Virus record (IMG/VR): IMGVR_UViG_3300013103_000005
Coordinates: 1 to 64,000 of that record
DNA length: 64,000 bases
Origin: a virus
Direction: 5' to 3' (one strand)
In this document: positions 2,261 to 61,603 of the stretch, one piece after another
How the letters are laid out: each line of letters begins with the position of its first letter
Position numbering within the stretch: the stretch's first letter is position 1
Notes under the pieces: generated by a model
Told to the model about the DNA's origin: nothing
Seen by the model: the letters and a program-made list of their open reading frames with translations, nothing else
Database searches by the model: none
Translations under genes and position numbers: made by a program

Positions 2261-2730
2261 ATATTATTTCCAATGTAGATGGAAGATTAATAATCAAAGA
2301 TTTGAATTTAACATTTACTTATAAAGGCCAGTTAATAACTATTAAAGATGAGGCATTTAACTTATCCAAAGATATTAAAGAAGCATTAAACAAAGGTTAT
2401 ATAACAATTATTAAAAAATCTCCTATTATTAAAAAAGAACAAAAAATTCCTAGAAATAATAATCGGGATTTAGATAACTTAATCAAAGAATTAAAAAGTA
2501 TTTTAAATGAATTAAAACAACAAACTATACAGAAAGAAGTGATTGTTAAAGAAGTTCAAAAAACCAGTTCTAACGAGGATTCTGATATTGAATATACAGA
2601 CCCATCGTTGTTGGCAGATATATCTCATACATTAAGCAAAGATTATAAAGCTCACTTAAGTCCAAAAACTTCTAAAGGGGATAAGATAGATAAATCGCAA
2701 ATAGAAAACTTAAAAAGTTTAACGCATTAA
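2254..2730 (+). CDS. Hypothetical coiled-coil protein; N-terminal domain paralogous to 8639..9400
   Basis: GRLIIKDLNL..KG..SKDIKEALNKGYI aligns by eye with GILRILDLDL..KG..SSSLKNCLKAGWI. Confidence 0.55.
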   Translation: MVNIISNVDGRLIIKDLNLTFTYKGQLITIKDEAFNLSKDIKEALNKGYITIIKKSPIIKKEQKIPRNNNRDLDNLIKELKSILNELKQQTIQKEVIVKEVQKTSSNEDSDIEYTDPSLLADISHTLSKDYKAHLSPKTSKGDKIDKSQIENLKSLTH

Positions 2731-2735
2731 ACTTT
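2714..2735. repeat. Dispersed 22-bp palindrome, copy 1 (centre CGCA)
   Basis: AAAGTTTAACGCATTAAACTTT; contains the stop codon of 2254..2730. Confidence 0.95.
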
Positions 2736-2757
2736 ATTTAAATTTGGGAGGATTGAT

Positions 2758-3738
2758 ATGGGACACGTTGGATTAGATATCGGTACTGCTAATCTAGTAT
2801 CTGCTTTTATGAATGATAATGAAGAAATAGAATATAAAATCCAAAGAGATGCTTATATAGAAATAGAAAGAAATAGATATACAGATAAAATCCTACAAGA
2901 AAGTGGGGTTCAATACGTAGAGTATAACAACAAAACATTTGTATTAGGGACGAATGCTTTTGAATTAGCCAATGTATTTAATAGAGAATGCCAAAGACCA
3001 ATGAAAGATGGTCTTATATCTCACGATGAAGCAGAGTCCGTCCCTGTAATTGAATTGCTAATTCATAGTCTTATAGGCGATGGAAAAGAAGGAGATATAT
3101 GTTGCTTTTCAATCCCTGCTAAGGCAATAGATTCAGATAAAGAAGTATTTTATCACGAAGGGTTATTTAAACAGCTTATATCTAATCAAGGTTATAATCC
3201 TATAACAATAAACGAAGCTTTTGCAGTAATACTTTCAGAATTATCAGAAGATAAATATACAGGAATAGCAATATCCTTTGGAGCAGGATTAACAAATGTT
3301 TCAGTAAGTTATATGGGAACTGAATGTGTATCGTTTTCAGTAAACAGAGGTGGGGATTGGATTGACAAGCAAGTTTCTACTATTTTAGGTATCCCTGCTT
3401 CTAGGGTAGCTGGGGAAAAAGAAAACGAAGAAATAGATTTATGTAGACCGTCAGGACAATTTGAAGTAGCTTTATCTCTAACATACAAAGCACTTATTGA
3501 TTATGTGGTGAATTTAATTGCAGAAAGATTGGTAAAGAGTAAGAAAGTTCCTTATTTTAAAGAACCTATAAATATCATTTGTTCAGGCGGTACTAGTTTA
3601 GCAAAGGGATTTATAGAATTATTTAATGATAAATTTAAGAAAGAAGATTTTCCAATCAAAATTAAAGAAATAAAACTAGCTCAAAATCCTTTATACGCAG
3701 TTGCTAAAGGTTGTTTATTGTCTGCTTTAAGTAGTTAA
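2758..3738 (+). CDS. Actin-like ATPase (MreB/MamK/ParM superfamily)
   Basis: Five actin motifs in order: GLDIGTANL, INEAFA, SFGAGLTN, CSGGTSLAKG, PLYAVAKG. Confidence 0.85.
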   Translation: MGHVGLDIGTANLVSAFMNDNEEIEYKIQRDAYIEIERNRYTDKILQESGVQYVEYNNKTFVLGTNAFELANVFNRECQRPMKDGLISHDEAESVPVIELLIHSLIGDGKEGDICCFSIPAKAIDSDKEVFYHEGLFKQLISNQGYNPITINEAFAVILSELSEDKYTGIAISFGAGLTNVSVSYMGTECVSFSVNRGGDWIDKQVSTILGIPASRVAGEKENEEIDLCRPSGQFEVALSLTYKALIDYVVNLIAERLVKSKKVPYFKEPINIICSGGTSLAKGFIELFNDKFKKEDFPIKIKEIKLAQNPLYAVAKGCLLSALSS

Positions 3739-3761
3739 TTTGTATTTAAGGAGATTTAAAG

Positions 3762-3968
3762 ATGAGGATAGAAAGAAAATCTTGGAGAGGAAGAATGCCT
3801 GGAGGGTATGGATTAGGGCCAGGTGGTGTTTGTATTTGTTTAGATTGTGGAAAGGAAGTTCCTCATACTAGGGGAGTTCCTTGTTATGCTCTTACTTGCC
3901 CTTATTGTGGTGGACCAATGATGAGAAAGGAAGTTATAACTAGATTTCAACAGAGGTTTGTAAGATGA
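3762..3968 (+). CDS. Small Cys-rich metal-binding protein
   Basis: GPGGVCICLDCG..H..G.PC...CPYCG pattern; SD AAGGAG. Confidence 0.65.
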   Translation: MRIERKSWRGRMPGGYGLGPGGVCICLDCGKEVPHTRGVPCYALTCPYCGGPMMRKEVITRFQQRFVR

Positions 3969-4228
3969 ATAGATATATAGAAAAATTTCTCAAGAAGAAA
4001 TTATCAATTTATTGGTATGCCCCGGGAAGGGTTTATAGGCCTACAAGACAAGAATTAGAACCAGATGATACTCCACCCGTGGGTAAACCGGGGCCGTTCT
4101 TTTGTCCTAAATGTAAAACAAAGATGATTAAAAAGCCATATAAGCTGAAGGAATATATTTATATTTGCCCATCTTGTTTCTTTGTAGTATTAGAAAACGA
4201 TTTACTTTCGTTTGTGGAGGAGAAATAA
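3965..4228 (+). CDS. Zn-ribbon protein
   Basis: CPKC...CPSC; ATGA overlap with the previous gene. Confidence 0.6.
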   Translation: MNRYIEKFLKKKLSIYWYAPGRVYRPTRQELEPDDTPPVGKPGPFFCPKCKTKMIKKPYKLKEYIYICPSCFFVVLENDLLSFVEEK

Positions 4229-8594: not shown

Positions 8595-8616
8595 AAAGTT
8601 TAACGCATTAAACTTT
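8595..8616. repeat. Palindrome copy 2 (CGCA)
   Basis: Exact match, between the terminator and the next SD. Confidence 0.95.
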
Positions 8617-9952: not shown

Positions 9953-10863
9953 GTACAAAAACTCATTCGGTAGCAGTAGCTAGAAATTCTCAATTAGGCC
10001 CTGAAGATTTAGATATTTATTTTGAAGTAGGGGGAGTTCCCACTGACCCATTTGAGATATTATTTGATGTTTATGATTTTACTACTGGGACAGAAGTCTT
10101 AATAAATCCTGCAGATAGAACACCTAATAAAATCTCTACAGGGCATTATTATGCTCCTATTTATATTCCTAGCGATGCTCCTTTTGGCGAATATCATATT
10201 AAATGGAAATATAGATTACAACCGGGCGACCCTCAATCTATCGAAACAGATGAATTCTTCGTAGTAGAAGCGACAGGTTTAGACCCCGAATTAACTGATA
10301 CAGAAAAAGAATTAGTAAGACAGTTAAGGGTTTTATTGAGAGATAACAAGCCTGATAAATATTATCATTTTATGCCTCCAACTCACGAAGAAGAAATACA
10401 ATCTTTTACTTCTGAGTATAGGTATATATGGGAAGATAGTCAGCTAGTTGATTGTTTAAATTGGGCTTGTTGGGATTTAAATAATATTCCGCCCCGTAAA
10501 TATACTTTTACCTTAGATTCAATACTAAACGGTAATCCTCATCAAAAAAGGGTTTTGCCTTTATTGTTAGTTCGGGCTGCTTGTTATGCCCTAGATATGT
10601 TAGCGGTCAATTGGACTGCTGACGAGTTTAGTTATAGTATCAACGGGATTAGTTTAGATTTAGATAAATCTTCTGCTTATAGGGATATGAAAGATGCTTT
10701 TAATTCTCAGTATAGAGAAATGGTAGAAGATTATCAAAGAACAGTGAAGATAATAAAAGGTCTCAGACCAAGTTATTATACAGTTGGGTTTGGATTATCG
10801 GGCGCTGCTATGTTAGGACCTAGAACATCGGGAAGGAATATTAGGAATTATATAAGGAGATAA
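9949..10863 (+). CDS. Probable head-tail adaptor/neck protein with Ig-like N-terminal domain
   Basis: Follows the capsid genes; C-terminal FSYSINGISLDLD motif typical of adaptors. Confidence 0.5.
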   Translation: MSTKTHSVAVARNSQLGPEDLDIYFEVGGVPTDPFEILFDVYDFTTGTEVLINPADRTPNKISTGHYYAPIYIPSDAPFGEYHIKWKYRLQPGDPQSIETDEFFVVEATGLDPELTDTEKELVRQLRVLLRDNKPDKYYHFMPPTHEEEIQSFTSEYRYIWEDSQLVDCLNWACWDLNNIPPRKYTFTLDSILNGNPHQKRVLPLLLVRAACYALDMLAVNWTADEFSYSINGISLDLDKSSAYRDMKDAFNSQYREMVEDYQRTVKIIKGLRPSYYTVGFGLSGAAMLGPRTSGRNIRNYIRR

Positions 10864-10883
10864 AGTTTAACGCATTAAACTTT
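10862..10883. repeat. Palindrome copy 3 (CGCA), plus an extra half-site GTTAAACT at 10890-10897
   Basis: Direct read. Confidence 0.95.
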
Positions 10884-10897: not shown

Positions 10898-11965
10898 ATG
10901 GAATACGAAAAGATAATAACAAACTTTCCAGGTGGTGGTCAGAATCACGAAAATGATTCTGGTCTCGAAAAAGATGAACTAGATGCTGATTTGTTTAATG
11001 AATATGAAAGAGTAATGCAAAAGTTAGTAGATAATTCTCAAGTATCTTATACTCCTCACGGATACTGGGGATTATCTACCTTAAATTCTACAACAGGGAG
11101 AACGATAAAGCATTTTAAGAACTTGTCTTATTATTCTGTTGAAGTTATCGTATTAGGTAACTCTACTTCGGTTGGAAATATAACCGTGGACACTTCCGAC
11201 CCTAATCAATTTACAGTTTATAATTCAGGAACAGACAATACTAGTAATTTTATATGGATAATAAAAGAATTACCTAGATTTACAGGATATTATGTAGTTT
11301 CTTCTGCGTTTAGTAACCCAAAAATAAATTTAATCCACGATTATCCTTTAGATAGTGTTCATATTTCTAGTTTTATACCAAAACAACAACCTAATAATTC
11401 TTTGCAGGACAAATATGTTATCCCACATCAAATATATGACGAATTAAAAGTAACAGGGAGTTTTGATAATCAACCCATAGATATTTTCTTTACAGGATTA
11501 GGTAAAGATGAAGCTTCTGGGACTAATAATTTTAATTCTACAACAGGGGTTACAATATCTCATTCGTTAGGAACTAGTGATTTAGATATTTTAATAGTTC
11601 CTATTGAAGACCCGTCTCCAGATACAATTGGAGATATTTGGGTAGAAATAACAAATACAGATTTTACAGTTTATAATTCAGGGAGTGCTACGACTCAATT
11701 CTTCTGGGTAATATTATCTACAAATCCTGATGATTATTTTATGAGGGGAAATTCTACATTCAATCCAGGTGCTGGTAACGGGGTAACGATAAACCATAAT
11801 ATCGGACATTTAAATTACTTTGTTATAGTAATCCCAACTCAAGATACTGGCGGTAATTTAGGCGATGTTTGGATAGAAAAGACAGAAACAGATGTAATAA
11901 TCAAAAATAATGGAACTGCAAATACTAGCTTTAACTATAGGATAGTTTTACCTGACGAAGTTTAA
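10898..11965 (+). CDS. Virion accessory protein with three internal beta-repeats
   Basis: Three copies of NSTTG.TI.H......G.I.V.....FTVYNSG.....F.W.I. Confidence 0.55.
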   Translation: MEYEKIITNFPGGGQNHENDSGLEKDELDADLFNEYERVMQKLVDNSQVSYTPHGYWGLSTLNSTTGRTIKHFKNLSYYSVEVIVLGNSTSVGNITVDTSDPNQFTVYNSGTDNTSNFIWIIKELPRFTGYYVVSSAFSNPKINLIHDYPLDSVHISSFIPKQQPNNSLQDKYVIPHQIYDELKVTGSFDNQPIDIFFTGLGKDEASGTNNFNSTTGVTISHSLGTSDLDILIVPIEDPSPDTIGDIWVEITNTDFTVYNSGSATTQFFWVILSTNPDDYFMRGNSTFNPGAGNGVTINHNIGHLNYFVIVIPTQDTGGNLGDVWIEKTETDVIIKNNGTANTSFNYRIVLPDEV

Positions 11966-11978
11966 CGCGTTAAACTTT
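11957..11978. repeat. Palindrome copy 4 (CGCG)
   Basis: GAAGTTTAACGCGTTAAACTTT; contains the stop codon. Confidence 0.95.
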
Positions 11979-14415: not shown

Positions 14416-15594
14416 ATGTATTATATTCTTACAAGACAATTAAAAAATATAATCAAAGACACTTTAAGGGAATGTTTTGATACTCATCCTAAATACAAAG
14501 AAATAGATGTTCAAACTTCTTATGTATTTAAAGAACGTCCTTCTTATGCAATAGTAGTAAACTCTACAGGAACAAGTTTTACAAAGTTATCAGCCGACCA
14601 ACAAGTAGGACATTTATATAGTTATGCAATTTTAGCTAGAATTTTAGGCAAACCCTGTACCTCGATAGAATGGATAAAAGAAGATAAACAATATTTAGAC
14701 GAAGGGGGAGAAATAGCTCCTGCTGGTAAATATTTTATAGAGATAATCTCTGATAAAGAATTTGAATTAAATATACAATATAAAGTTTTTAATGAAGTAA
14801 TTATAGAAAATGCTCAAGGCGGGGAATATATATTTCAATTACAACATAAAAATGTAGTGCCTGGTACTTTATCTATGGAAGCCGAAGACCCGTTTACAGT
14901 ATTCGAGGAAGATAAATTTGAAGTAGATTATGAAGAAGGGATTATTAGATGGACAGAACCGGGTGGTATTCCCGAAGGTTGGACGATAAGGGTTACTTAT
15001 GAATATTTGGACCCTAATAGCCCTAAGATTTTCAATTATGAACCTCTTCACTATAACAACGAAGCAATACCGGGAATTATATTAGCCTTTGGAGATAGAA
15101 TTCATATAGGGGATAAGCAAGTAGTTATAGTTCAGGAACAAAGGTCAATAAGTCATTATTTGCTAGGTGGGAAATCTAATATTGATATTGATTGCGAAAT
15201 AGTTGCTCAAGACTTATCTTCTTTAGAAGAAATAACAGATTTAGCAACGATGTATTTATGGGGATTAAAAAGAGATGATTTATATAGGGAGTATGGAGTT
15301 TTTATAGATGATATTTCAATAGGTGGAGAATCAGCTGAAGTTAGAGACGATACTGCGGGAGAATTAGAATATAGAAATACAGTTTCATTAAGTTGTATTT
15401 GCGATTGGGAAATAGCCTTTCCTTTACCTAGAGTATTATCGGTAATATGGCCATATACAAGACTTGATGGTCCTGATATTAAGGAAGATGATTTACCAAA
15501 TTACACCCCGACAAGAGCAAGTACTTTAGAAGTTACGACTTCTTTTGAGCCTTTTATATTTGGATTTTCTTATAGTGGTGAAAGGATAATATGA
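14416..15594 (+). CDS. Probable tail terminator/completion protein
   Basis: Upstream of the sheath gene; contains an Ig-like insertion (VDYEEGII). Confidence 0.45.
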   Translation: MYYILTRQLKNIIKDTLRECFDTHPKYKEIDVQTSYVFKERPSYAIVVNSTGTSFTKLSADQQVGHLYSYAILARILGKPCTSIEWIKEDKQYLDEGGEIAPAGKYFIEIISDKEFELNIQYKVFNEVIIENAQGGEYIFQLQHKNVVPGTLSMEAEDPFTVFEEDKFEVDYEEGIIRWTEPGGIPEGWTIRVTYEYLDPNSPKIFNYEPLHYNNEAIPGIILAFGDRIHIGDKQVVIVQEQRSISHYLLGGKSNIDIDCEIVAQDLSSLEEITDLATMYLWGLKRDDLYREYGVFIDDISIGGESAEVRDDTAGELEYRNTVSLSCICDWEIAFPLPRVLSVIWPYTRLDGPDIKEDDLPNYTPTRASTLEVTTSFEPFIFGFSYSGERII

Positions 15595-15614
15595 AGTTTA
15601 ACGCATTAAACTTA
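15593..15614. repeat. Palindrome copy 5 (CGCA)
   Basis: GAAGTTTAACGCATTAAACTTA. Confidence 0.95.
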
Positions 15615-18789: not shown

Positions 18790-18811
18790 AAAGTTTAACC
18801 TATTAAACTTC
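18790..18811. repeat. Palindrome copy 6 (degenerate, centre CCTA)
   Basis: AAAGTTTAACCTATTAAACTTC. Confidence 0.85.
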
Positions 18812-19121: not shown

Positions 19122-19143
19122 GAACTTTAACGTGTTAAACTTT
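19122..19143. repeat. Palindrome copy 7 (degenerate, centre CGTG)
   Basis: GAACTTTAACGTGTTAAACTTT. Confidence 0.8.
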
Positions 19144-21670: not shown

Positions 21671-21675
21671 ACTTT
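21654..21675. repeat. Palindrome copy 8 (CGCG; 24-bp perfect with flanks)
   Basis: AAAAGTTTAACGCGTTAAACTTTT; contains the stop codon. Confidence 0.95.
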
Positions 21676-25598: not shown

Positions 25599-25620
25599 AA
25601 AGTTTAACGCGTTAAACTTT
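25599..25620. repeat. Palindrome copy 9 (CGCG)
   Basis: Direct read. Confidence 0.95.
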
Positions 25621-28021: not shown

Positions 28022-28041
28022 AGTTTAACGCATTAAACTTT
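28020..28041. repeat. Palindrome copy 10 (CGCA)
   Basis: Direct read; followed by a separate AT-rich hairpin at 28044-28078. Confidence 0.95.
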
Positions 28042-34948: not shown

Positions 34949-34968
34949 AGTTTAACGCGTTAAACTTT
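34947..34968. repeat. Palindrome copy 16 (CGCG)
   Basis: Direct read. Confidence 0.95.
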
Positions 34969-39061: not shown

Positions 39062-39083
39062 AAAGTTTAACGCGTTAAACTTT
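39062..39083. repeat. Palindrome copy 17 (CGCG), apex of a long hairpin at 39029-39116
   Basis: GAAAGTTTAACGCGTTAAACTTTC with further flanking complementarity. Confidence 0.95.
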
Positions 39084-43544: not shown

Positions 43545-45684
43545 AGAGTTTAACGCGTTAAACTTTTCCGCTTCTGGGGCAAATTTTCATAAAACAATAT
43601 TGACTAGTAGTGGGGTAAAATTAGCTCCTTTTATTCCTTTGAGGAATAGATTTTATTATGGAACATATACGACCCCGCCATTCTTCATTGGAAATAATGG
43701 CGGGAGAATAGATAAAATATCTTGGCAAGGAAACATTCCCCCTAATACTAACGTCCAAGCAGAAGTTCAATTCGGTCCCGATGATGGATTGTCTAATAAT
43801 TTTGCTAATTGGGGAGATTGGCAGCCCTTACTTACTCAAATAGATGGGTTTAATGAGTCTGCTGGAACTTTATTAGATAATGAAACTGTTTTATTATTGC
43901 ATTTTAATATAGAGACCTCGCCGACGGAAATAAAAGATTCATCCCCTAAAGGTCATATAGTACAAATCTTTAGAAATGTTTATTTGGTAAATACACCTTC
44001 TAAATTCGGAGATTCTGCTTATTTTAGCGGTGCGGGTTGTTTAAAAATCGCTGATTGTCCTGATTGGGATTTTGGAGGCGAGGATTTTACGATAGATTTT
44101 TGGATTAAGAGAAATAGGTTAACTCAAAGGGAGCTATTGGCGGGACAGACTAATAGTTTGGGTAATAGAAACGCTACTTCAGTATGGATTGAAATTTCGG
44201 CAACGGATCAATTAATCGTTTGGGTTTGTGAATCTACTAAACGATACGGGGGCGTTTTTGGAACTATTAGGGATTATAATTGGCATCATATTGCTGTAGT
44301 AAGAAACGGAAATAATCTATACGGGTTTGTAGACGGGATTTTGCGAAATACGTTTAATGTTACTAATGTTGTCGTTAATAATGTTAATAGTAATTTTGCT
44401 ATCGGGTGTGTAGGGGATAGGAATACTTATTTTTTCAACGGATGGATGGACGAATTTAGGATAAGCAAAGGAATCGCAAGATGGACTAGGGATTTTATTC
44501 CCCCGTCTAAGGAGTATCATATTGAGACTTACGGGGTAGACGATAAAACTAAGTTATTGTTACATTTTAATGCAGAAGGAGCTAATATTATAGATTCTTC
44601 TTTTTCAAACCACATCGTAGAGGTTTATGGTGATGTTATTCAAGTTACGAATCCGAGTAAATTTGGAAAGGCTTGTTTTTTTGATGGGAATGGCGATTAT
44701 TTACAAATAGCTAATAGCCCTGATTGGGAATTCGGTTTAGAGGATTTTACTATAGATTTTTGGATTTATATTAATTCCTTTTCCGCAAGGGATATGGTAG
44801 TCGTAACTTATTTTGATACTTTTCCAGAATGGTGGGTCGCGGTTCGCCAGAATGGCGATGGATGGAATGTTTGGCTTAATGGAGGGACAAATATTAATGA
44901 TCCTTTGACTACTGGGGTTTGGTATCACGTTGCTTTAGTTCGTTGCTCTGATACTATTTATTTCTTCAGGGATGGAGAATTAAAGGCTAGTTGGTATTCT
45001 GTTAATAACGATTTGTCGGGTAGGCAGTTTCTTAGAATAGGAAGGGCTTACGATTCAGGGAGTCACGATTTAGATGCTGTTATTGATGAATTAAGGATAA
45101 GCAAAGGGATTGCTAGATGGGTTTCTAATTTTATTCCTCCTAGTCAGGAATATCATCAAGGTTTAGGGATAATGAGTTGGAATAGGAGTTCAGAAAAATT
45201 AGGAATTATTAGGGATGCTAGCGAAAAAGTGGAAGGTACTTCTTCAATGAAGTTAGAGGTTTCTAAAGGTTCGTTGAGAACTTATGTTTACCGAGAATTT
45301 GGTGCTGGTATTTCTTTGCAAAACGCTAAATATATTTCTTTTTATGTTAAGTCAGAAGAGATAGGTATCCCTTTAATTTTACATATAGATTCAGTCAATT
45401 CGGGAATTTCTACTGTATACCCAAAAGCCTTTCCTATAAGGGTAATTGAGAAAAATGTTTGGAGAGAATATAGGTTCGATTTATCTTCCATTCCTGATAC
45501 AGACGACCTTAAAAATCCTTCTGTAGGTTTAAGATACATAGCCTTCGAGATAAATTCGGATTCAAAGTTTGGTATTTGGATTGATGATATTAGGATTGGG
45601 AATTATATAATAAATAATGAGGCATTATCTATTTCTGGGGATAAGTATTGTAGGGTAAGATTAACATTATCAAGGAGTCATTAA
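43534..45684 (+). CDS. Virion adhesin with two LamG/ConA-like domains and a C-terminal CBM-like domain
   Basis: Two copies of LLLHFN..DSS...SKFG...DFTIDFWI...W.H.A.VR...DE.RISKGIARW. Confidence 0.75.
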   Translation: MPSKEFNALNFSASGANFHKTILTSSGVKLAPFIPLRNRFYYGTYTTPPFFIGNNGGRIDKISWQGNIPPNTNVQAEVQFGPDDGLSNNFANWGDWQPLLTQIDGFNESAGTLLDNETVLLLHFNIETSPTEIKDSSPKGHIVQIFRNVYLVNTPSKFGDSAYFSGAGCLKIADCPDWDFGGEDFTIDFWIKRNRLTQRELLAGQTNSLGNRNATSVWIEISATDQLIVWVCESTKRYGGVFGTIRDYNWHHIAVVRNGNNLYGFVDGILRNTFNVTNVVVNNVNSNFAIGCVGDRNTYFFNGWMDEFRISKGIARWTRDFIPPSKEYHIETYGVDDKTKLLLHFNAEGANIIDSSFSNHIVEVYGDVIQVTNPSKFGKACFFDGNGDYLQIANSPDWEFGLEDFTIDFWIYINSFSARDMVVVTYFDTFPEWWVAVRQNGDGWNVWLNGGTNINDPLTTGVWYHVALVRCSDTIYFFRDGELKASWYSVNNDLSGRQFLRIGRAYDSGSHDLDAVIDELRISKGIARWVSNFIPPSQEYHQGLGIMSWNRSSEKLGIIRDASEKVEGTSSMKLEVSKGSLRTYVYREFGAGISLQNAKYISFYVKSEEIGIPLILHIDSVNSGISTVYPKAFPIRVIEKNVWREYRFDLSSIPDTDDLKNPSVGLRYIAFEINSDSKFGIWIDDIRIGNYIINNEALSISGDKYCRVRLTLSRSH
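43545..43566. repeat. Palindrome copy 18 (CGCG), in codons 4-11 of 43534..45684
   Basis: AGAGTTTAACGCGTTAAACTTT, read as EFNALNF. Confidence 0.9.
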
Positions 45685-45685: not shown

Positions 45686-46246
45686 ATGAAATTCGTGGAT
45701 AATTATAAGATAAATACTGAGTATTTTACTATTAAAAAGAAAAATTCAAATGAAGATAAATTTCCATTAGTTATTGGGGAAGTTTTCATAATTTCTAAAA
45801 AGGGGATTATTAAAAAGGAATTTAAATTACCAAATAAAATTCTAAACGGTGCGGGTTTAATGTTAGCACAGTTTTGTCAAAACGAAACTTTAAGCGGGTT
45901 GACTTATATAGCGGTAGGAACAGGAGACCCTAGTTGGGGAGATAATCCACCAGAACCAGATGTAACTCAAACGGAATTAGTAGCAGAGATTTATAGAAAG
46001 CCTATAATGGTTAGAAGATATTTGGATGAAAGTTTTAATACTGTTCCTGGTCCGACTCGTATAATAGAAGTGGAGGTAACTTTTATGGAACACGAAGCTA
46101 ACGGGCCTTGGAGAGAAATGGGATTGTTTGGAGGAAACGCCACCGCCGATTTAAATTCGGGTTATTTGTTTGCAGCTAGAAATTTTAAGGTTAAAAATAA
46201 AGAGGATGATGAGCAAGTTTCGATAGCTTGGAGATTATATTTCTGA
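45686..46246 (+). CDS. Tail collar/fibre attachment protein
   Basis: YIAVGTG..T.L..E.YR...EANG..REMGLFGG motifs. Confidence 0.6.
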   Translation: MKFVDNYKINTEYFTIKKKNSNEDKFPLVIGEVFIISKKGIIKKEFKLPNKILNGAGLMLAQFCQNETLSGLTYIAVGTGDPSWGDNPPEPDVTQTELVAEIYRKPIMVRRYLDESFNTVPGPTRIIEVEVTFMEHEANGPWREMGLFGGNATADLNSGYLFAARNFKVKNKEDDEQVSIAWRLYF

Positions 46247-46266
46247 AGTTTAACGCGTTAAACTTT
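46245..46266. repeat. Palindrome copy 19 (CGCG)
   Basis: At the boundary of the structural and replication modules. Confidence 0.95.
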
Positions 46267-50277: not shown

Positions 50278-50815
50278 GGATGTCGTAATTATGGTAGGAG
50301 ATTGTGAAAAGCCTAAAGGATTTAGTAGGGTGGAAATTTTTAGAAAGGATATTTTTAGTACCAAGGGTTTTAGAAAGGGATTATTTGTGGATGCTGATAA
50401 TTTAAATTTAACTTCTTTAGATATTAAATGGATTTGCGAGAATTCTAAATTCCCAACCCTTATTTTGGTTAGAAATAGGGAGAAATTAAAATCCATTTCC
50501 CCGAATATAAAAGTTATCGAAAAAAGGGAATGGGGGAAGTCCTTTGATATTTTTGAATGTTTAAATATTATTTTAAAGGAAAGGGACAGAACTAAGGTTT
50601 TGAATTATCTGAACGAGGTCAGACCTCCCGCCTTGTTGCTTTTTAATTGGTTAATAAGTAACATAGACCAGATAGGGAATATACCTTTACTTATGTATTT
50701 AGATGAGCATATTTTAAATAAGAAGTCTGTCGAATGGTTTTATGAATTTTTAGCTTTGGGGATTAAACCTGTTTCTAAGTATATAAGATATAAATATAGG
50801 ATAAGAAAAGTTTAA
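50267..50815 (+). CDS. Possible degenerate clamp-loader subunit
   Basis: Lies between clamp and RFC genes; P....NWL..N resembles the RFC large-subunit collar. Confidence 0.35.
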   Translation: MRNRDVVIMVGDCEKPKGFSRVEIFRKDIFSTKGFRKGLFVDADNLNLTSLDIKWICENSKFPTLILVRNREKLKSISPNIKVIEKREWGKSFDIFECLNIILKERDRTKVLNYLNEVRPPALLLFNWLISNIDQIGNIPLLMYLDEHILNKKSVEWFYEFLALGIKPVSKYIRYKYRIRKV

Positions 50816-50828
50816 CGCATTAAACTTT
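50807..50828. repeat. Palindrome copy 20 (CGCA)
   Basis: Contains the stop codon. Confidence 0.95.
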
Positions 50829-50841: not shown

Positions 50842-51696
50842 ATGTTAACAGAACAATTAAGACCTAAAAAATTGGAAGATGTGGTTGGACAAAAGGAAAT
50901 CGTAAATAAACTGAAGGAATTTGTAAAGAAAGGAGAAATCCCTAATTTATTGTTTTACGGAAATCCTGGAGTTGGTAAAACTACAGTTGCTCATATTATA
51001 GGTAGAGAGATTTTAGGCAAAACATTTAAAACAAACTTTATCGATATGAACGCTTCTTCGGATAGAGGTATTGATACTATTAGAGGGTTAATACAGGAGA
51101 GAGCTAAAGTTAGGTCTTTAGGAACGAACAAACCGAAAATAATATTTCTTGACGAAGCAGAAATGATGACAAGAGACGCTCAAACCGCTCTAAGGCGAAT
51201 AATGGAGGATTATTATAAGACTTGTAGATTTATACTTTCCTGTAATTTTATTGAAAAGATTATAGAGCCTATAAGAGATAGATGTTCTCCTTTTCATTTT
51301 AAAGACATTCCTTATAAGACAATTGCTAAATATCTCTTAAAGAAGGTCAATCCAATATTATCAAAACCTTTATCTAAAAAACAAGTAATAGCTATATCTA
51401 AAAAAGCAAATGGGAGTTTACGAAGAGCTTTGAATTTAGTAGAGGCAGGGTATAATAAAGAAGTAAAAATAGAAAAGCCTTTATTATCTTTATCCACTAA
51501 AGAATTTTTTGATTTAGTTTATAGTAATGAATATGACCCTGATATTTTATTTCAAAAATTACATCAAGAAGTAGTTTCTAAAAAGAATATAAAAGCATTA
51601 GTTATTTTAGCAGATACCGATTATAGGATGAGTTTAGCTACAAATAAAATGTTACAGTTAATGAGTTGCTTTGTTAAGATTAGGAGGAAAAAATGA
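50842..51696 (+). CDS. RFC small-subunit-like clamp loader ATPase
   Basis: E..RP..L.DVVGQ, G.PGVGKT, NAS.DRGID.IR, LDEA..MT.DAQ.ALRR.ME and RC motifs. Confidence 0.9.
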   Translation: MLTEQLRPKKLEDVVGQKEIVNKLKEFVKKGEIPNLLFYGNPGVGKTTVAHIIGREILGKTFKTNFIDMNASSDRGIDTIRGLIQERAKVRSLGTNKPKIIFLDEAEMMTRDAQTALRRIMEDYYKTCRFILSCNFIEKIIEPIRDRCSPFHFKDIPYKTIAKYLLKKVNPILSKPLSKKQVIAISKKANGSLRRALNLVEAGYNKEVKIEKPLLSLSTKEFFDLVYSNEYDPDILFQKLHQEVVSKKNIKALVILADTDYRMSLATNKMLQLMSCFVKIRRKK

Positions 51697-52361
51697 AGGA
51701 CAAAAATTCTATTCAGGTCAAGATAGTTCCTTTAGAAAGGATAAAGCCTTTTGAGAAAAATCCTAGGGTAATGAACCCTAAGGCAATTGAAAGTGTTGCC
51801 AATTCTATTAAAGAATTTGGGTTCAACGTTCCGATAGTGGTTAATTCCGAAATGAAGATTTGCTGTGGTCATACGAGATACGAAGCAGCCAAACTTTTAG
51901 GGTTAAAGAAAGTTCCTGTGATTATTAGGGATATGGACGAGAAGGATTTTCTTTCTTATAATATTATCGATAATAAAACTTCTGAACTTAATGAATGGAA
52001 TTTTGAAATGCTCAGAAAAAATATTCAGGATTTGGATAAGGATTTAACGGAATTTGGTTTTACAGAAGAAGATTTAGACATAATTCTTTCATCTGAGGAA
52101 GAATTATGTTCTTTTTCTGAAGATGAGTTACCTGAGTATGATAAAAGCTTGACAGAAGATACAGATAAACCAGAAGAAAGATTCCATTGTACAATATTTT
52201 TTGATTCCAAAGAAGATTGGGAGCTTTTAGCTAAATTATCGGGAAAAGAAGGAAGTAAGTATTTAGAAGGAAGTATGATTGTAGAAAATTTAAAGAATTT
52301 TTTAGGTAAAAAGTTTAAAAAATTGCAGAAGATTATGGAGGGTTCGGATGGAGAAAATTAA
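51693..52361 (+). CDS. ParB/Srx N-terminal domain protein (DNA-modification-associated type)
   Basis: NPR, SI.EFGF..PIVV, GHTR..AA..LG...VPV and DNKT.E...W motifs. Confidence 0.8.
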   Translation: MKDKNSIQVKIVPLERIKPFEKNPRVMNPKAIESVANSIKEFGFNVPIVVNSEMKICCGHTRYEAAKLLGLKKVPVIIRDMDEKDFLSYNIIDNKTSELNEWNFEMLRKNIQDLDKDLTEFGFTEEDLDIILSSEEELCSFSEDELPEYDKSLTEDTDKPEERFHCTIFFDSKEDWELLAKLSGKEGSKYLEGSMIVENLKNFLGKKFKKLQKIMEGSDGEN

Positions 52362-55331: not shown

Positions 55332-55334
55332 GAT

Positions 55335-56426: not shown

Positions 56427-58798
56427 ATTTTTTATCCAAGGAACTTCCTTGTTCTAACAAATGTCGTCTTTATAAAACCTGTAAAACCCCTTGTATTAAG
56501 GGAAGGGGAAATCCTAATGCAGATATTTTTCTTATAGGCGAGGCCCCGGGGGAAGAAGAGGATGAGCAGGGAAAAGTATTCGTAGGGCGTTCTGGAAAAA
56601 TTTTAGAAAAAGCCCTTGAAAAAGTTGGAATTAAGAATTTTTATATTACAAATGCAGTTGCTTGCAGACCTCCTAATAATAGGGAGCCGACCCAAAAGGA
56701 AATTGAGGCCTGTAAGCCTCGTCTCTTAAAGGAAATAAAGAAGATAAAGCCTAAAACGATTATTTTATTAGGCAATACTGCTCTTAAATCCTTGTTTGCC
56801 AAAACCAAAATAAGCGATTATTTGAATCAGGATTTGGAATTTGAAGGAATTAAGGTTTATGCCAATTATCACCCTGCTGCTTTATTAAGAAATCCCGCCT
56901 TGAAAAAACCTTTTCTAGAGGTTTTGATTAGGGCTAAGAAAGGATTGATATCAAATAAGATAAGGAGAGAATATTGGTTATTAGAGACTTACGAAGAAAT
57001 AAAAGATTTTTTGAAATCTTTGTTGAAAAAAGAATGGGTAGCTTTTGATATCGAGACTTTAGGTTTGGATTATTTGGCTAAGAGAGCTAGGTTATTGTCT
57101 ATCGCCTTTTCGGGCGAGATTGGAAAGGCATTTGCTTTTTCTTTAGATAAGAAAAGGTTGGGGTTGTTGGAATATAGAAAGAGGATTAAATTATTAAATA
57201 ATTTCTTTAATCATAGGTCTACCCCGAAATTGATAGGCCATAATGTTAAATTCGATTGTGCTTATTTAAAGTATTTCGGGGTCGATGTGGATAATTTAAA
57301 GTGGGATACACAGCTAGCTCATCATTTATTGAATGAAGAGATGTTGATGCCTGGTTTAAAGGAATTGGCTAAAAGATATACGGATTTAGGGGATTATAAT
57401 GAACCTGTTAAGGGATATATGAATAATCTAGATTTTTTACCAGAAAAAACTATTTTAACTTATAATTGTTATGATGCGGATGCTACTTTTAGAATTTTTG
57501 TTTACGAGTATAAGAAATTGAAAAAAGAACCTAACCTTTTATGGGTTTTGAATAATATCTTGCTTCCCGCCAGTTATGTCTTAATGTTAATGGAAATGCA
57601 AGGAGCTTCTTTAGATTTGGAATACGTTTATAAGTTGAAGAAAAAGTTCGAAAATGAGAAAAATGAGATTATAAGAAAGCTTGAAAAATCTAAAGCGATT
57701 AGAAAATCTGTAGAAATATTGAAAACTAAATTTAATTTTAATTCTTCAGACCATTTAAGGGTTCTGTTGTATGAGGTTTTGAAGTTACCTGTCGATAAAT
57801 CCAACCTTACTAAAACGGGCTTGCCTTCGGCTAAGGTTGAAGTACTTAAAAAATTTTCTGATAGATATAAAATTATAGGTTCTCTCCTTAGACTTTCTAA
57901 GGTTAAAAAGATGTTAACTACTTATCTAGAACCTGCTGAAGATTGGCTTTCTTCGGATGGGAAGGTCCATACAACTTATAATTTAACAGGGACAGTTACA
58001 GGAAGATTAAGTTCCGAAAGACCAAATAGTCAAAATTTTCCTAGAGATAAAACTATAAAGAAAATGTTTATAGCTTCGCCAGGGAATCTGATTATTCAAG
58101 CTGATTATAGTCAGATGGAATTAAGGGTAATGGCTTGTGCCTCTAGGGATAAAAGATTGATAGAAATTTATAATAAGGGATTAGACGCTCATAAGATGGC
58201 TGCCTCGGCTATGTATAATGTTCCTTATGATAAAGTAACGCCAGAACAAAGACAATTTGCCAAAGGTGCCGTAAGTTTTGGATTAAATTATGGTAGGGGA
58301 GCTAAGGCACTTGCTAGAGATTTGAATATTTCTGTTGAGGAAGCAGAAAGATTTAGGAGGGATTATTTTAAAAGGTATTCGGGTGTCGCTAGGTACATAG
58401 AAGAAGTAAAAAAGACTTTAAGAAAACAAGGTTATGTTGAGAGCTTATTTGGAAGAAGAAGGAGATTACCTAATATTTATTCAAAGGATGAATATAAAAG
58501 AAGCGAAGCAGAGAGACAAGCGGTAAATTTTATAATTCAGTCAACCGCTTCAGATATAACACTTTTAGCGTTATATAAAATATATAAGAGGATTAAAAAA
58601 GAAGAAAAATTATCGAGGCTGATTTTTACTATACACGATTCAGTTGTTTTAGAGGTACCCGAAAGCGAAGTGGATTGGTGTGTAGAAATGTTGAAGAAAG
58701 AAATGGTAGATTTTAAATTTGATTGGTTAGTAGTTCCTTTAGCAATTGAAATAGATATAATGAAAAATTGGGGAGAAACTATTAGAACCATAGAATGA
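56423..58798 (+). CDS. polA: Family A DNA polymerase with an N-terminal family-4 uracil-DNA glycosylase domain and 3'-5' exonuclease
   Basis: UDG: GEAPG, CRPP.NR.P, HPA. Exo: DIET, HN.KFD, YN..D. Pol: TGRLSS, DYSQ.ELR, HDS. Confidence 0.92.
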
Positions 58799-58819
58799 AA
58801 GTTTAACGCGTTAAACTAT
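58798..58819. repeat. Palindrome copy 21 (CGCG), abutting the methyltransferase ATG
   Basis: AAAGTTTAACGCGTTAAACT directly followed by ATG. Confidence 0.95.
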
Positions 58820-59477: not shown

Positions 59478-59484
59478 GGAAGAT

Positions 59485-60966
59485 ATGAAAAATAAAATAA
59501 CAATCGAACATCAATTTATATTTGCTTTACTCGAAGACCCGGGTAGGTTTAAAAAATTAAGAGGTATTAGTTCAAATTATTTATTAAATCCTGTAGCAAA
59601 ACTACTTTTTAGAAAGTTATTAAATTATCATAGGCGGACAAAGAAATTTTTAGATATAGAAGCATTAGGGACTTATATATCTTCTATACCTAAGAAAAAA
59701 TTAAGAAAGAAATTTTCAGAGTTTTATTCTGAATTGGCAACCCTTGTAGAAATTTCAGAATCTCAATTTGAATATATTTTAGAACAAATCAAAAAGAATT
59801 ATAAAAAGAAATTGATTAGTAATAAAGTTTATGATGTATTAGTGGCTAATGAGAATGAAGACAATCCAGACAAAGCAGAAAAATTATGGACATTGGGTTT
59901 ACAGGAATTGAGGAGACAATCTCCAGAAGAAGCTCCTTTAATAGACTTAGATGATGAATTATCTACAAGTTTAGAAGAATACGAGAAAATGAAGAACGAA
60001 GATAAGAAAGCAGTTCCTACAGGTATAGATTTAATTGATATGTATACGGGAGGATTATATCCTGGAGAATTGTGGTTGTTAGGCGGTTATACTTCAGAAG
60101 GTAAAACTACAGTATTAACGAATATAGCGAGAAATATAGTAGTTAATGGGTATAATGTTTTGTTTATAACTTTAGAAGAAACTGTAAAACAAATGAGGTG
60201 GAGATTTGCTTGTTGCCATTCTAATTATATTAAAAATGGTTCTGCTATTCCTGGGGTAGTTTATTCTAAAATAGAAACAACCGCTTTAGAACCAGAAGAA
60301 TTGAAAAAGTATAAAAAGACAATAAAGGATTGGTATAAAAATAAAAATAGGGGAAGAATATTTTTCTGGCAAGCACCTGCGAACACGATGGTGATTACAG
60401 TTGAAGATATTATGAATTATTTAGCGATGGATATTAGATTAGATGCCGTGCTTATAGATTATGCTCAATTAGTGAGACCTACAAAAAGAATAGGAAATAC
60501 AAGATATGAAATGACAGAGGTTATAGAGGATTTGAAACAACTAGCTTTAACTTTTAACGATGGTAAAGGGATACCTATATTGACCGCTTGGCAAATATCA
60601 AGGAAGGGTAGAAATAATGCAGAGAAAAGAGGTTATTATATTAAAGAAGATTTTAGCGAAACTTCATTTTCAGAAAGAACTTCTGATGTGATGTTATGGT
60701 TTTTAACTACTGATGAGTTTAAAGAAGCAGGTTTAATTAAATATGGAATAGCTAAAAATAGAGGTGGGCCAACTGAAATTAAAGGAAGATTTTTAAAACA
60801 GAATTTCGCTACGAATTATATAGGAACAAAAACATTAGACCAGAATGAGGTAGATAAGATATTAAAGAATTATCAAGGCGAGAAGAAAGCTTCAGAAGAA
60901 TTTGTGGTAGAAGATTTTGAAGAAGAAGGATTTTTCGACGACATTGAGGAATTTGAAGAAGTTTAA
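59485..60966 (+). CDS. dnaB: DnaB-like replicative helicase
   Basis: PTG...D...GG, G.TSEGKT, TLE, IDY.QL, Q..R and KNRGG motifs. Confidence 0.85.
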   Translation: MKNKITIEHQFIFALLEDPGRFKKLRGISSNYLLNPVAKLLFRKLLNYHRRTKKFLDIEALGTYISSIPKKKLRKKFSEFYSELATLVEISESQFEYILEQIKKNYKKKLISNKVYDVLVANENEDNPDKAEKLWTLGLQELRRQSPEEAPLIDLDDELSTSLEEYEKMKNEDKKAVPTGIDLIDMYTGGLYPGELWLLGGYTSEGKTTVLTNIARNIVVNGYNVLFITLEETVKQMRWRFACCHSNYIKNGSAIPGVVYSKIETTALEPEELKKYKKTIKDWYKNKNRGRIFFWQAPANTMVITVEDIMNYLAMDIRLDAVLIDYAQLVRPTKRIGNTRYEMTEVIEDLKQLALTFNDGKGIPILTAWQISRKGRNNAEKRGYYIKEDFSETSFSERTSDVMLWFLTTDEFKEAGLIKYGIAKNRGGPTEIKGRFLKQNFATNYIGTKTLDQNEVDKILKNYQGEKKASEEFVVEDFEEEGFFDDIEEFEEV

Positions 60967-60979
60967 CGCATTAAACTTT
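60958..60979. repeat. Palindrome copy 22 (CGCA)
   Basis: Contains the stop codon. Confidence 0.95.
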
Positions 60980-60996
60980 TGAGGACTTTTTGATAA

Positions 60997-61590
60997 ATGA
61001 AGAACGAAAAAATTTTGAAAATAATCAGAGAAGAATTGGATTTATTTAAGGTGTTAGATTTTTATAATATAGAATATAACCCTTCCAAAACAAAACAGAT
61101 GATAATTTGTCCTTTCCATTCGGAAATAAAACCCTCTTTATCTATTTCTGAAGATGGAAAATTATGGCATTGTTTTGGGTGTAATGCAGGCGGAGATGTT
61201 ATAAAGTTTATTGAAGAAATAGCTAAATGTGATTTTAAAGAAGCTATAGAAATAGCAAAGGAAATATTGGGAATTAAAAAAGGAAAAATCAAAATTAAAA
61301 AAGTTGTAAAGACGAAAGTTAAAGAAAAGATTTTGTTTGAAGATGTTCAAGAGGATTTGAAAAATAAATTACTCGAAGAATTGAAATTGATGTATAAGAC
61401 TTATAGAATTGTTTGTGATTTTCCTTTGTATTTGGATAAGATTTATGATTATGTTTTGAGCGTTGTTTTTGAAAAAGAAAGATGGTCTGTATCCTCTGTG
61501 AGAACCTTCCTTTCCCAATCCGAATCTTTATTTAGGCTCTCCTTTGAAAACCCTCCTAAAATTTCAAGATGGTATCCAGAAAAAGTTTAA
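60997..61590 (+). CDS. CHC2 Zn-finger protein (DnaG Zn-binding domain, no TOPRIM)
   Basis: CPFHSE.KPS...WHCFGC.AGGDVI.F. Confidence 0.85.
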   Translation: MKNEKILKIIREELDLFKVLDFYNIEYNPSKTKQMIICPFHSEIKPSLSISEDGKLWHCFGCNAGGDVIKFIEEIAKCDFKEAIEIAKEILGIKKGKIKIKKVVKTKVKEKILFEDVQEDLKNKLLEELKLMYKTYRIVCDFPLYLDKIYDYVLSVVFEKERWSVSSVRTFLSQSESLFRLSFENPPKISRWYPEKV

Positions 61591-61603
61591 CGCGTTAAAC
61601 TTT
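61582..61603. repeat. Palindrome copy 23 (CGCG), last in the window
   Basis: Contains the stop codon. Confidence 0.95.

Follow-up and report, generated by a model that had tools for sequence, protein, structure and literature searches.

A 22-bp palindrome recurs in about 60 nearly identical copies in the intergenic gaps of an uncultured marine phage. Of these, 23 lie in the window analysed here, the first 64,000 nucleotides of IMG/VR record IMGVR_UViG_3300013103_000005. Our tentative reading, held with somewhat less than even confidence and based on sequence comparison, is that these palindromes are double-stranded DNA docking sites for an orphan ParB-like protein (71962-72936 of the record); it is the most likely of the readings considered, more so than RNA hairpins. 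A phage-encoded dimeric protein would recognise the palindrome as double-stranded DNA, most likely an orphan protein of the ParB/Noc/KorB type that combines an N-terminal domain of the ParB CTPase fold with a ParB HTH and would work without a ParA partner. By analogy to KorB (plasmid RK2) and Noc (Bacillus), the roughly 60 sites may be nucleation or loading sites, from which the protein would spread along the phage DNA or close on it as a clamp, and the outcome could be a genome-wide tuning of transcription or an organising of the replicating genome. We infer the ParB protein as the reader, its use of CTP and the effect of its binding.

Copies, limits and spread of the palindrome

All 23 copies listed in the earlier note carry the motif AAAGTTTAACGCRTTAAACTTT, which is exact at 12 sites in the window and has one to four mismatches at the other 11, mostly in the outer three base pairs, and none of 100 dinucleotide shuffles contained a match. 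The window itself turned out to hold only part of the family: six more copies lie beyond it in the 76-kb record (67166, 68148, 68534, 69540, 71256 and 73401), bringing the record to 29, and 31 further copies lie on the 47-kb metagenome contig Ga0164318_10000110, which abuts the record and is apparently the remainder of the same phage. The measured spacing of 332 to 7991 bp, with genes between, agrees with the 0.3-8 kb first described, and the 2.4 kb of early region visible in the window are free of copies as claimed, with none in 61604-64000 and a gap that runs on to 67165.

The element is exactly 22 bp long, its information content falling to background exactly at positions 1 and 22, and 53 of 60 copies match the 16-bp core without a mismatch. 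These sharp limits and the near-invariance of the family speak for docking sites, as does the behaviour of the motif next to duplicated genes: five methylase paralogues with a mutual identity of only 31-36% each have a copy upstream, and the motif has therefore stayed constant while the neighbouring genes drifted. Neither isolated half-sites nor decayed copies occur, which likewise speaks for docking sites.

The motif was compared with known classes of elements. Rfam gave no hit in the window at gathering scores, and a 20-mer of the motif had three single hits in 596 Gb of species genomes, as opposed to about nine expected by chance according to our own estimate. A host REP element or operator was rejected on the basis of these three hits, in a collection from which the host of the phage may be absent. 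One of these hits falls on a BlaI/BlaR1 operator; the bacterium, with 59% G+C, is unrelated. A CRISPR array or solitary CRISPR units do not fit the spacing of 0.3 to 8 kb with genes between and had no match in the genome collection, and an intrinsic terminator was discarded, the stem having 9 pairs, 8 of them A-U, at -4.1 kcal/mol and a T at position +1 in only 15 of 29 copies. The original description as a phage-encoded cis-element that is not a described one holds up: there is no Rfam match, it does not occur as a repeat in the species genomes searched, and the relative phage G001 has a co-varied version.

Position relative to genes

On the plus strand, copies with a CGCA centre are found at 2714..2735 (stop formed by the motif's TAA at offset 15, start of a Volactin-like gene 22 nt behind), 8595..8616 (following the capsid region), 10862..10883 (upstream stop tAA using the first two A of the motif), 15593..15614 (two mismatches to the R-centred pattern, upstream TGA overlapping position 1), 28020..28041 (next start 116 nt off), 30602..30623 (G at position 3), 31859..31880 (preceding a 1018-aa baseplate gene), 50807..50828 (preceding a clamp-loader gene) and 60958..60979 (between a DnaB-like helicase and a primase zinc-ribbon gene). 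Two degenerate plus-strand copies lie at 18790..18811 (centre CCTA, 2 nt past the terminator hairpin after the tail sheath gene) and 19122..19143 (C at position 4, centre CGTG).

Among the copies without an assigned strand, those at 21654..21675 (preceding the tape-measure gene), 25599..25620, 31110..31131, 34947..34968 (directly after the baseplate gene), 39062..39083 and 61582..61603 (after the primase gene) are perfect. The copy at 39062 forms the tip of a 98-nt rod (-37.4 kcal/mol, z -6.7) that also covers the tail-fibre SD, and flanks extending the stem were seen at this copy only, by a non-systematic look; 26 nt behind the copy at 61582 there is a host-type promoter-like site, TTTAAA-17-TATAAT at 61629-61657. 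The remaining copies are located at 11957..11978 (G at position 1, stop formed by the motif's TAA at offset 7, ATG 8 nt behind without an SD), 28472..28493 (intragenic, reading K F N A L N), 29815..29836 (A at position 22), 43545..43566 (after the upstream stop, within the next gene, which starts at 43534), 46245..46266 (preceding a helicase gene) and 58798..58819 (between the DNA polymerase and a DNA methylase, whose ATG overlaps the motif end).

In the record, 22 of 29 copies contain or touch the stop codon of the upstream gene (offsets -3 to +15), which is often the motif's own TAA, and the next start codon follows 8-22 nt behind in 24 of 29. Over all copies, the stop is at -3 to +15 in 46 of 60 and the next start no more than 25 nt away in 51 of 60, with a median of 14 nt from the motif end to the ATG. 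The position between a stop codon and the next SD, as first described, is the usual one, but the stop often falls within or against the motif, and translation passes through two of the copies, those at 28472 and 43545, in its sole open frame; several copies are intragenic. The copies may sit at junctions simply for lack of other non-coding room, the genes being co-directional and tightly packed with only short gaps between them.

This placement (46/60 and 51/60) counts against docking sites insofar as it would also suit a role in RNA or translation. Such an RNA-level element would be a transcribed hairpin just 5' of the SD, at the foot of the preceding stop codon, that is bound or cut by a phage factor, for instance an NYN-domain RNase, and that sets the stability of mRNA segments, translational coupling or initiation at the downstream gene. 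We consider it unlikely. It draws on the stop and start geometry and on three starts that abut the motif without an SD (58798, L005:1871 and L011:6734), which fit termination-reinitiation across the stem, and an NYN RNase is encoded at L009:2513-3037 (47-kb contig) with a copy just upstream; however, this gene has no match in G001, and any 22-bp insert in this genome would fall between stop and SD. The hairpin reaches only -4.1 kcal/mol with an ensemble frequency of 0.31, a weakness that is in favour of DNA docking sites. Compensatory Watson-Crick changes within the genome amount to 0 among 540 stem cells in 60 copies, so that it is the sequence which is conserved and not the pairing. Non-Watson-Crick stem cells do favour sense-strand G.U (16 vs 8 A.C), but most of this excess comes from position 1, where the motif often shares bases with the upstream stop codon. 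The centre is strand-polarised in this phage, with A at position 13 in 30 copies and T at position 10 in 4 (about 6e-6 by binomial arithmetic), which fits an RNA-level element and is not predicted by a symmetric dimer on docking sites.

A miniature palindromic repeat of the REP or MITE kind, selfish or neutral, that spreads into gene junctions by recombination or an enzyme, appears quite unlikely to us. It would be tolerated at the junctions because it carries its own stop codons, and in most copies the upstream stop is indeed wholly or partly made up of motif letters (offsets 0, 7 and 15); the absence of decayed copies would match a recent burst. However, no transposase, RAYT or HUH enzyme was found among the roughly 95 proteins scanned, which are part of the proteome, the flanks show no target duplication, known mobile repeats are longer than 22 bp, and copies persist beside the paralogues at about 35% identity.

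The claim that two copies directly follow intrinsic terminators is borne out at 8595 and 18790, which lie directly behind G+C-rich hairpins with T-tails. Together with L011:1304, these make three cases of a strong terminator followed by a copy and then a gene, an order that would suit a promoter, or part of one, for a phage-directed form of RNA polymerase. Its right-arm TAAACT would be the -10-like box, and it is also in keeping with the motif being the sole over-represented long word in the phage besides the SD. As candidate factor, the sigma-70 region-2-only protein encoded at 71533-71955 comes into question, whose gene adjoins the ParB gene and is conserved beside it in both phages; its hit (E 6e-4) is below the Pfam cut-off. 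The role of a promoter remains awkward and is very unlikely in our estimation: the motif is palindromic, so a promoter would fire in both directions, and G001 has it both ways round; with a median of 14 nt to the ATG there is almost no room for a leader, conservation of flanking -35/-10 elements is absent, and several copies are inside genes.

Variation in the relative phage G001

The comparison between phages covers this phage and one relative with the same design, G001, whose DNA polymerase is 54% identical. It contains 15 copies of AGCTTTCA-CGCA-TGAAAGCT, in which both arms differ from this phage at the pairs 3/20, 4/19 and 8/15 and the CGCA centre is unchanged, all copies within each genome sharing one arm version. 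At least 8 of the 15 copies read TGCG on the coding strand, and both orientations relative to genes thus occur, from which it follows that the element works or persists either way round. The concerted arm changes and both orientations are evidence for docking sites, and the arm changes also speak against a selfish repeat. For the RNA-level element, more than half of the copies in G001 would give the opposite loop, UGCG. The hairpin role proposed in the earlier note is thereby weakened, together with the folding energy of -4.1 kcal/mol and the missing compensatory variation within the genome.

On the other side, G001 has five tandem pairs, and copies also lie within a composite nested repeat, which together with both orientations would suit a selfish repeat, as would the fact that most copy-bearing junctions differ between the phages. 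Within the nested repeat, the core is enclosed by 11-bp outer arms, so that the stem lengthens to about 21 bp and has an internal loop; this RNase III-like structure would favour an element acting at the RNA level.

Recombination sites for the exchange of gene cassettes, in the manner of attC sites or T4-type promoter stem-loops, receive hardly any credence from us. Copies do punctuate single genes or small gene groups, and the five methylase paralogues, each with a copy upstream, would be in line with such an exchange. However, no copy lies at the edges of the indels that could be placed between the two phages, namely a 4.7-kb radical-SAM block (51693-56426) and a 4.3-kb block of G001 behind the exonuclease gene, and neither an integrase nor a recombinase was found among the proteins scanned. 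The suggestion of gene shuffling therefore finds no backing at the few indel edges that can be compared.

A ParB-like protein as candidate reader

The gene at 71962-72936 of the record, outside the window, encodes a protein with a ParB N domain and a ParB HTH. PF17762 (ParB HTH) is matched with an E value of 1.6e-10 and 41.5 bits (cut-off 22.6) and PF02195 with 3e-4, below its cut-off, and comparison with ParB/Noc/Spo0J structures by phmmer gave 5e-15 to 1e-7 over the N domain and the HTH, which aligns to the HTH of 4umk, 6t1f and 7ng0; for ParB and Noc structures the values are 5e-15 to 5e-10. Between this phage and G001 the protein is 48% identical, and its recognition helix reads SKGRVSQILSLL versus SESRVSSTLSLL. 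Box II (GxRR) is DGQRR in this phage and DGERR in G001, and Box III (ENxxR) is ISNEAR here and ISNDAR in G001, with N and R kept and S for E. A C-terminal dimerisation domain (PF23552) was not detected with Pfam, the AlphaFold model being too poor to judge; the C-terminal 70 or so residues are conserved with G001 and match nothing. Neither the 76-kb record nor that of G001, both incomplete, contains a match to ParA (PF13614), and the protein is accordingly classed with Noc as an orphan ParB.

Around 25 proteins are common to both phages, and the ParB-HTH protein has the sole recognised sequence-specific DNA-binding domain among them. In both phages, the operon of the sigma-like gene, ParB and X is flanked by copies, at 71256 and 73401 in this phage; in G001 a tandem pair precedes it and one copy follows. 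The conserved gene with copies on either side of its operon supports docking sites, and the conservation of these flanking sites argues against a selfish repeat. Furthermore, as read from the sequence, 6 of the 8 positions of the parS half-site TGTTTCAC (PMC7053999) agree with AGTTTAAC, and 6 likewise with GCTTTCAC, a resemblance that would suit docking sites. Against docking sites stand a half-site gap that is 2 bp wider at the dyad than in parS, GQRR instead of GERR, SN instead of EN in Box III, and the lack of a detected canonical C-terminal dimerisation domain. Other weakly conserved small proteins could also read the motif, and the sigma-like gene is likewise shared.

A site for a phage DNA-binding protein is the best supported of the four roles first suggested, but with a protein other than those named for it. 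None of the three is shared with G001: 9418-9660 is a DUF5659 protein, 15631-15960 a zinc ribbon, and 51693..52361 (plus strand) a protein with only the ParB N domain, which is a poor candidate because it has no HTH and is not shared.

Comparison with known systems

T7 RNase III sites and REP elements are intercistronic hairpins just before the next ribosome-binding site, stable and variable in sequence. The palindrome shares this position between cistrons, but its hairpin is weak (-4.1 kcal/mol) and its sequence invariant. The stoperators of Cluster A mycobacteriophages are asymmetric 13-bp sites for the monomeric immunity repressor of temperate phages, present in about 30 copies in short intergenic gaps and oriented with transcription, where the bound phage protein blocks elongation (PMC9283540, PMC6550527). 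Many copies of one site in short intergenic gaps are a common feature, but a stoperator was rejected, as the site here is palindromic and occurs either way round in G001, and neither an immunity repressor nor an integrase was found.

The OB sites of the IncP plasmid RK2 number about a dozen, many of them at promoters. As with KorB and OB, one palindrome occurs here at many dispersed sites, with a predicted reader of ParB-N and HTH and with sites flanking its operon; unlike RK2, about 60 sites are spread over about 123 kb, almost always in the gap between a stop and the next SD, neither a KorA-like partner nor ParA (IncC) was identified, and the carrier is a phage that looks lytic. KorB, a member of the ParB family, binds a short palindrome with the core TTTAGCGGCTAAA at many dispersed sites of RK2, loads there in the form of a sliding clamp that depends on CTP, and silences distant promoters (PMC11790492). 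With ParB-parS and Noc-NBS, the element has in common the 16-bp-class palindrome and half-sites resembling TGTTTCAC at 6 of 8 positions (PMC7053999, PMC8367383, PMC8429893), and with Noc the many dispersed sites and a ParB-type protein without a ParA partner, whereas the phage protein differs from ParB and Noc in its GQRR Box II, SN for EN in Box III and an unrelated C-terminal domain.

The closest published analogue is the repeat of Cluster O mycobacteriophages. Each genome has over 30 copies of an invariant 17-bp dyad repeat around a short centre, and the phages, which do not appear to be temperate, encode a protein with a ParB-like domain; the authors predicted binding by a dimeric protein and left the function unknown (PMC4351075). 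Roughly one in three of the Cluster O sites falls inside a gene, the centre is variable and the arms are 7 bp long (PMC4351075), whereas in the phages described here, which are unrelated to them, nearly all copies are junctional, the CGCR centre is conserved, between relatives as well, and each arm has 9 bp.

Distribution and conservation of the palindrome

The 22-bp near-identical palindrome with the centre CGCR, for which the earlier note had counted 23 dispersed copies, was recovered at all of these sites: AAAGTTTAACGCRTTAAACTTT occurs exactly at 12 of them and with at most three mismatches at all 23, and matches were obtained in 0 of 100 dinucleotide-preserving shuffles. The virus record is a single contig of 76,116 bp, of which the window covers the first 64 kb and in which six further copies beyond the window (67166, 68148, 68534, 69540, 71256 and 73401) bring the total to 29. 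The credible genes of the record are all on the plus strand. An upstream stop codon falls at motif offset -3 to +15 in 22 of the 29 copies, and the next start codon follows 8-22 nt behind the motif in 24; the motif reads TAA in two of three frames and is often itself the stop of the upstream gene. These counts agree with the previous statement that most copies lie between a stop codon and the next SD, except that the copies at 28472 and 43545 are translated through, in the motif's sole open frame. The information content equals background exactly at both ends of the 22 bp, and beyond them only a diffuse purine-rich SD signal is present.

An exact scan of metagenome contigs returned one contig with many copies, Ga0164318_10000110 (47,265 bp; positions preceded by L005, L009 or L012 refer to it), which carries 31 copies in the 44 kb examined, in the same layout as in the record, that is, motif, a few nucleotides, SD and ATG. 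Apart from paralogous methylases and a weak exonuclease-like match, its gene content is distinct from that of the record, its final 123 bp agree base for base with positions 1-123 of the record, and its SbcCD-like genes extend the gene order found behind RecA in the relative phage G001. These features indicate that record and contig belong to one phage, the contig supplying the missing part, and on this basis the phage is estimated at no less than about 123 kb with about 60 copies. Among the 60 copies of record and contig, 53 carry the 16-bp core GTTTAACGCRTTAAAC unchanged, 46 have a stop codon at -3 to +15 and 51 have the next start at most 25 nt away, and neither isolated half-sites nor decayed copies were found. 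With about one site per 2 kb, this is a very dense family. The junction position itself is little discriminating, because any intergenic insert among tight co-directional genes falls between stop and SD. There are five N6/N4 DNA methylase paralogues, mutually 31-36% identical (window 58818-59477; L009:3687-4418, 5861-6625, 7174-8562 and 8593-9762, four of them clustered on the 47-kb contig), and a copy lies directly upstream of each, so the motif has been held constant while its neighbours drifted.

Some copies have distinctive surroundings. A 98-nt rod (39029-39126; -37.4 kcal/mol, z -6.7), in which the SD of the tail-fibre gene is also paired, has the copy at 39062 at its tip; this is the sole copy noticed, in a casual rather than systematic look, whose flanks extend the stem. 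Seven small genes directly behind copies start with MK(L/K/Y)V(K/R/S)I (window 18832 and 19156; L005:1892; L012:1569, 2291, 5835 and 6628), a likeness at the protein level with synonymous differences that does not extend the DNA repeat. Two AT-rich regions just behind a copy (window 61604-61700; L005:2203-2260) have AAAATTTTTGTWWA in common; the first contains a host-type promoter-like match at 61629-61657 and is followed by 5.5 kb without copies. These regions may be the heads of early operons.

A scan of candidate hosts had been suggested in the earlier note, and bacterial genomes gave no sign of a host element: in 596 Gb of species-representative genomes, the 20-mer core had three single matches, fewer than the roughly nine estimated by chance. 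One of them lies in an Oscillospiraceae MAG, an unrelated bacterium with 59% G+C, where two similar palindromes of a BlaI/BlaR1 operon stand between its TTGACA box and its SD (L002:2990-3070); this is an unrelated operator sharing the core by happenstance. A BlaI-type repressor was dismissed as the reader of the motif, as the phage record has no BlaI-type gene. The 20-mer had no match in IMG/VR, from which the source record itself may have been withheld. The degenerate pattern ANNTTTNACGCATNAAANNT gave noise, all single among the matches listed, and the T4-type late promoter word TATAAATA shows no enrichment (16 occurrences, 14 expected). No Rfam match was obtained anywhere in the window at gathering scores, which also leaves the proposed capsid-gene group I intron (6991-8241) and 470-nt structured RNA (61776-62240) without Rfam backing.

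Gene content of the phage

Sheath, tape-measure, baseplate and fibre genes in the record indicate a myovirus-type tail. The replication genes comprise a UDG-PolA polymerase, DnaB-like and SNF2-like helicases, an RFC-like clamp loader, a 5'-3' exonuclease, a primase zinc-ribbon protein and RecA. The polymerase shares no more than 34% identity with its counterparts in cultured phages, those of Bacillus Herelleviridae coming closest, and megablast of 20 kb of the phage against cultured phages gave no nucleotide match. IMG/VR searches with the baseplate or the polymerase protein alone likewise found nothing. Among the sequencing runs searched, no RNA run with phage words was listed; one marine DNA run held 6% of the phage words, in short contigs about 90-95% alike, none of which spans a copy. 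In the head-assembly module, an actin-like ATPase of the Volactin family (2758-3738; PF25216, E 7e-84) has a copy directly upstream.

A re-tuned palindrome in a relative

Alignment of the closest polymerases retrieved a relative from IMG/VR, G001 (IMGVR_UViG_3300028920_000043; 111 kb, 42% G+C), whose polymerase is 54% identical. A look at related phages had been proposed as a check, and G001 indeed has 15 copies of AGCTTTCA-CGCA-TGAAAGCT, all 15 intergenic and ahead of genes. Aligned on the centre, the palindromes of both phages keep TTT, the A before the centre, the CGCA centre and the mirrored AAA, and the G001 version is changed on both arms at the pairs 3/20 (A-T to G-C), 4/19 (G-C to C-G) and 8/15 (A-T to C-G); judged from this alignment, it is of the same design. 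The observation is thereby confirmed and widened to about 60 copies, two phages and one co-varied version. In G001, outer arms of 11 bp (GAGCTAGTTCA / TGAACTAGCTC) enclose the core, five tandem pairs of copies occur, and the copies stand in both orientations, at least 8 of the 15 reading TGCG on the local coding strand. In 79 more distant polymerase relatives, no dispersed repeat of any kind was seen. An additional match of the G001 core in the record G002 was set aside as chance, because G002 has neither ParB nor polymerase.

The two phages have about 25 proteins in common, which make up the replication and recombination module and little else. One copy-bearing junction, ahead of a 90-aa gene (L012:6592; 88103 in G001), is conserved; apart from it and the flanks of the ParB operon, such junctions differ between the phages. 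Between clamp loader and polymerase, the window carries a block (51693-56426) of a ParB-N-only gene, two radical SAM genes (one B12-binding) and unknown genes; it is missing from G001, which has a palindrome copy at that junction instead. At positions 110240 and 110396 of the G001 contig (L101), two copies are each preceded, some 20 nt away, by a TGCATAAT extended -10-like box, on the opposite strand from the majority of the genes, and look like promoter-proximal operators.

A selfish repeat would account for the sharing of stop codons, for the tandem and inverted copies in G001 and for the turnover of positions, but no enzyme for its spread was seen among the approximately 95 proteins scanned, and we consider this origin quite unlikely. 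Recombination at the motif, another role put forward in the earlier note together with a comparison of breakpoints, is extremely improbable and gains no support from the indels that can be placed between the phage and G001, which have no copies at their edges. The idea of a late promoter or activator site has some support, as the motif is the only over-represented long word of the phage besides the SD and a copy stands immediately behind each of three strong terminators; its palindromic form, the median of only 14 nt from motif end to ATG, the absence of boxes in its flanks and its occurrence in both orientations in G001 nevertheless make a promoter awkward and very unlikely.

A role at the RNA level deserves a closer look. 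The centre is polar in this phage, position 13 being A in 30 and G in 30 of the 60 copies and the mirror change, T at position 10, occurring in only 4, which would suit an RNA or otherwise oriented role. Also in keeping with it are a mild excess of G.U over A.C (16 vs 8), the tight stop and start geometry, three starts that abut the motif without an SD, an NYN-domain (PIN-like) RNase gene with a copy just upstream on the 47-kb contig (L009:2513-3037) and the folding of the G001 version into a nested stem of RNase III size. However, the hairpin is weak (-4.1 kcal/mol, 31% of the ensemble), the left-arm variation largely overlaps upstream stop codons, the RNase gene was not found in G001, where both orientations are tolerated, and there is no compensatory pair among the 60 copies: the motif is conserved as sequence, not as pairing. 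The RNA hairpin suggested earlier is therefore disfavoured, and an RNA-level element appears unlikely.

A ParB-like protein as candidate reader

The remaining suggestion of the earlier note, a site for a phage DNA-binding protein, is favoured by the invariant sequence, the sharp limits, the concerted arm changes and the tolerance of orientation, and the lack of half-sites and decayed copies, the constancy of the motif beside the diverged methylase paralogues, the weak hairpin and half-sites resembling parS likewise speak for a dsDNA site. The two half-sites, AGTTTAAC and GCTTTCAC, agree with the parS half-site TGTTTCAC (consensus as in PMC7053999 and PMC8367383) in 6 of 8 positions each, and their separation is 2 bp larger.

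Only one of the approximately 25 common proteins has a recognised sequence-specific DNA-binding domain, a ParB-family protein encoded at 71962-72936 of the record. In Pfam, it matches the ParB HTH (E 1.6e-10) and weakly ParB-N, and by phmmer its residues 70-250 align to ParB of H. pylori (5e-15), Caulobacter ParB, Noc and Spo0J over the GxRR box and the HTH. It is 48% identical to its G001 homologue, which is encoded on the minus strand at L110:12052-13257, and the recognition helix differs (SKGRVSQILSLL vs SESRVSSTLSLL). No ParA-type ATPase was detected in the record or the G001 record. Close relatives were found neither among 5.8 billion proteins nor in cultured phages, where tblastn gave similarity to the N-domain only, and the ParB alignment search of IMG/VR returned only G001 and a distant locus, L117, with clustered iterons instead of dispersed palindromes. 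An AlphaFold2 model from a 2-sequence alignment reached a pLDDT of 45 and was discarded. In both phages, the protein has a long low-complexity N-terminal region with Lys-rich and acidic blocks, in G001 with a KKxAKKK-type tail at the N-terminus.

Ahead of the gene, both phages have a small gene with similarity to sigma-70 region 2 (Pfam E 6e-4; 29% identity between the phages), and behind it a conserved 157-aa gene. Palindrome copies flank this operon on both sides: in the record they are found at 71256 and 73401, and in G001 a tandem pair stands upstream and, ahead of the homologue of gene 73444, a single copy. The 321-aa gene behind copy 73401 has a gp32-like look, an Atlas lead only, and its product was not retained as a candidate reader. 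On these grounds, the motif may well represent dsDNA docking sites of the orphan ParB-type protein, the candidate reader of a KorB/Noc-like genome-wide system, a reading that we favour over the others but hold tentatively.

A more far-reaching version, plasmid-style genome-wide control in a virulent-looking phage of about 123 kb by an orphan ParB-fold clamp and a factor consisting of sigma-70 region 2 only, is improbable. The clamp would load at the approximately 60 parS-like palindromes, one ahead of about every third gene, slide on the phage DNA with a direction given to loading or sliding by the conserved CGCA asymmetry, and act with the co-operonic sigma factor, so that the state of the DNA would be coupled to late transcription. 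The model for this is T4, whose sliding clamp activates the late sigma gp55.

Comparison with known systems

In this phage, a site family of very high density occurs together with just one conserved ParB-HTH gene, and the relative carries a re-tuned site. If the link to ParB is true, regulation by a CTP switch of the KorB/Noc type would reach large lytic-type phages, and a class of repeats in many uncultured phage genomes would be explained; if it fails, the motif would become a candidate RNA-level control element, sequence-specific and placed ahead of ribosome-binding sites. Phages and other mobile elements commonly encode orphan ParB-fold proteins, whose roles are largely unknown, ParB-HTH architectures are typical of plasmids and chromosomes rather than phages, and ParB-fold fusions to Sigma70 domains exist in bacteria (2025 survey, PMC12704722). 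The closest mechanistic models for the motif and the ParB-like protein are KorB of RK2, a CTP clamp of the ParB family that uses dispersed palindromes, the OB operators, as loading sites and silences promoters over long range (PMC11790492), and Noc, whose NBS sites are likewise dispersed (PMC8429893). In descriptive terms, the 17-bp dyad repeat of the Cluster O mycobacteriophages comes closest; it is present in more than 30 copies, has no known function and is predicted by its authors to be bound by a dimeric protein, in phages that also carry a gene with a ParB-like domain (PMC4351075).
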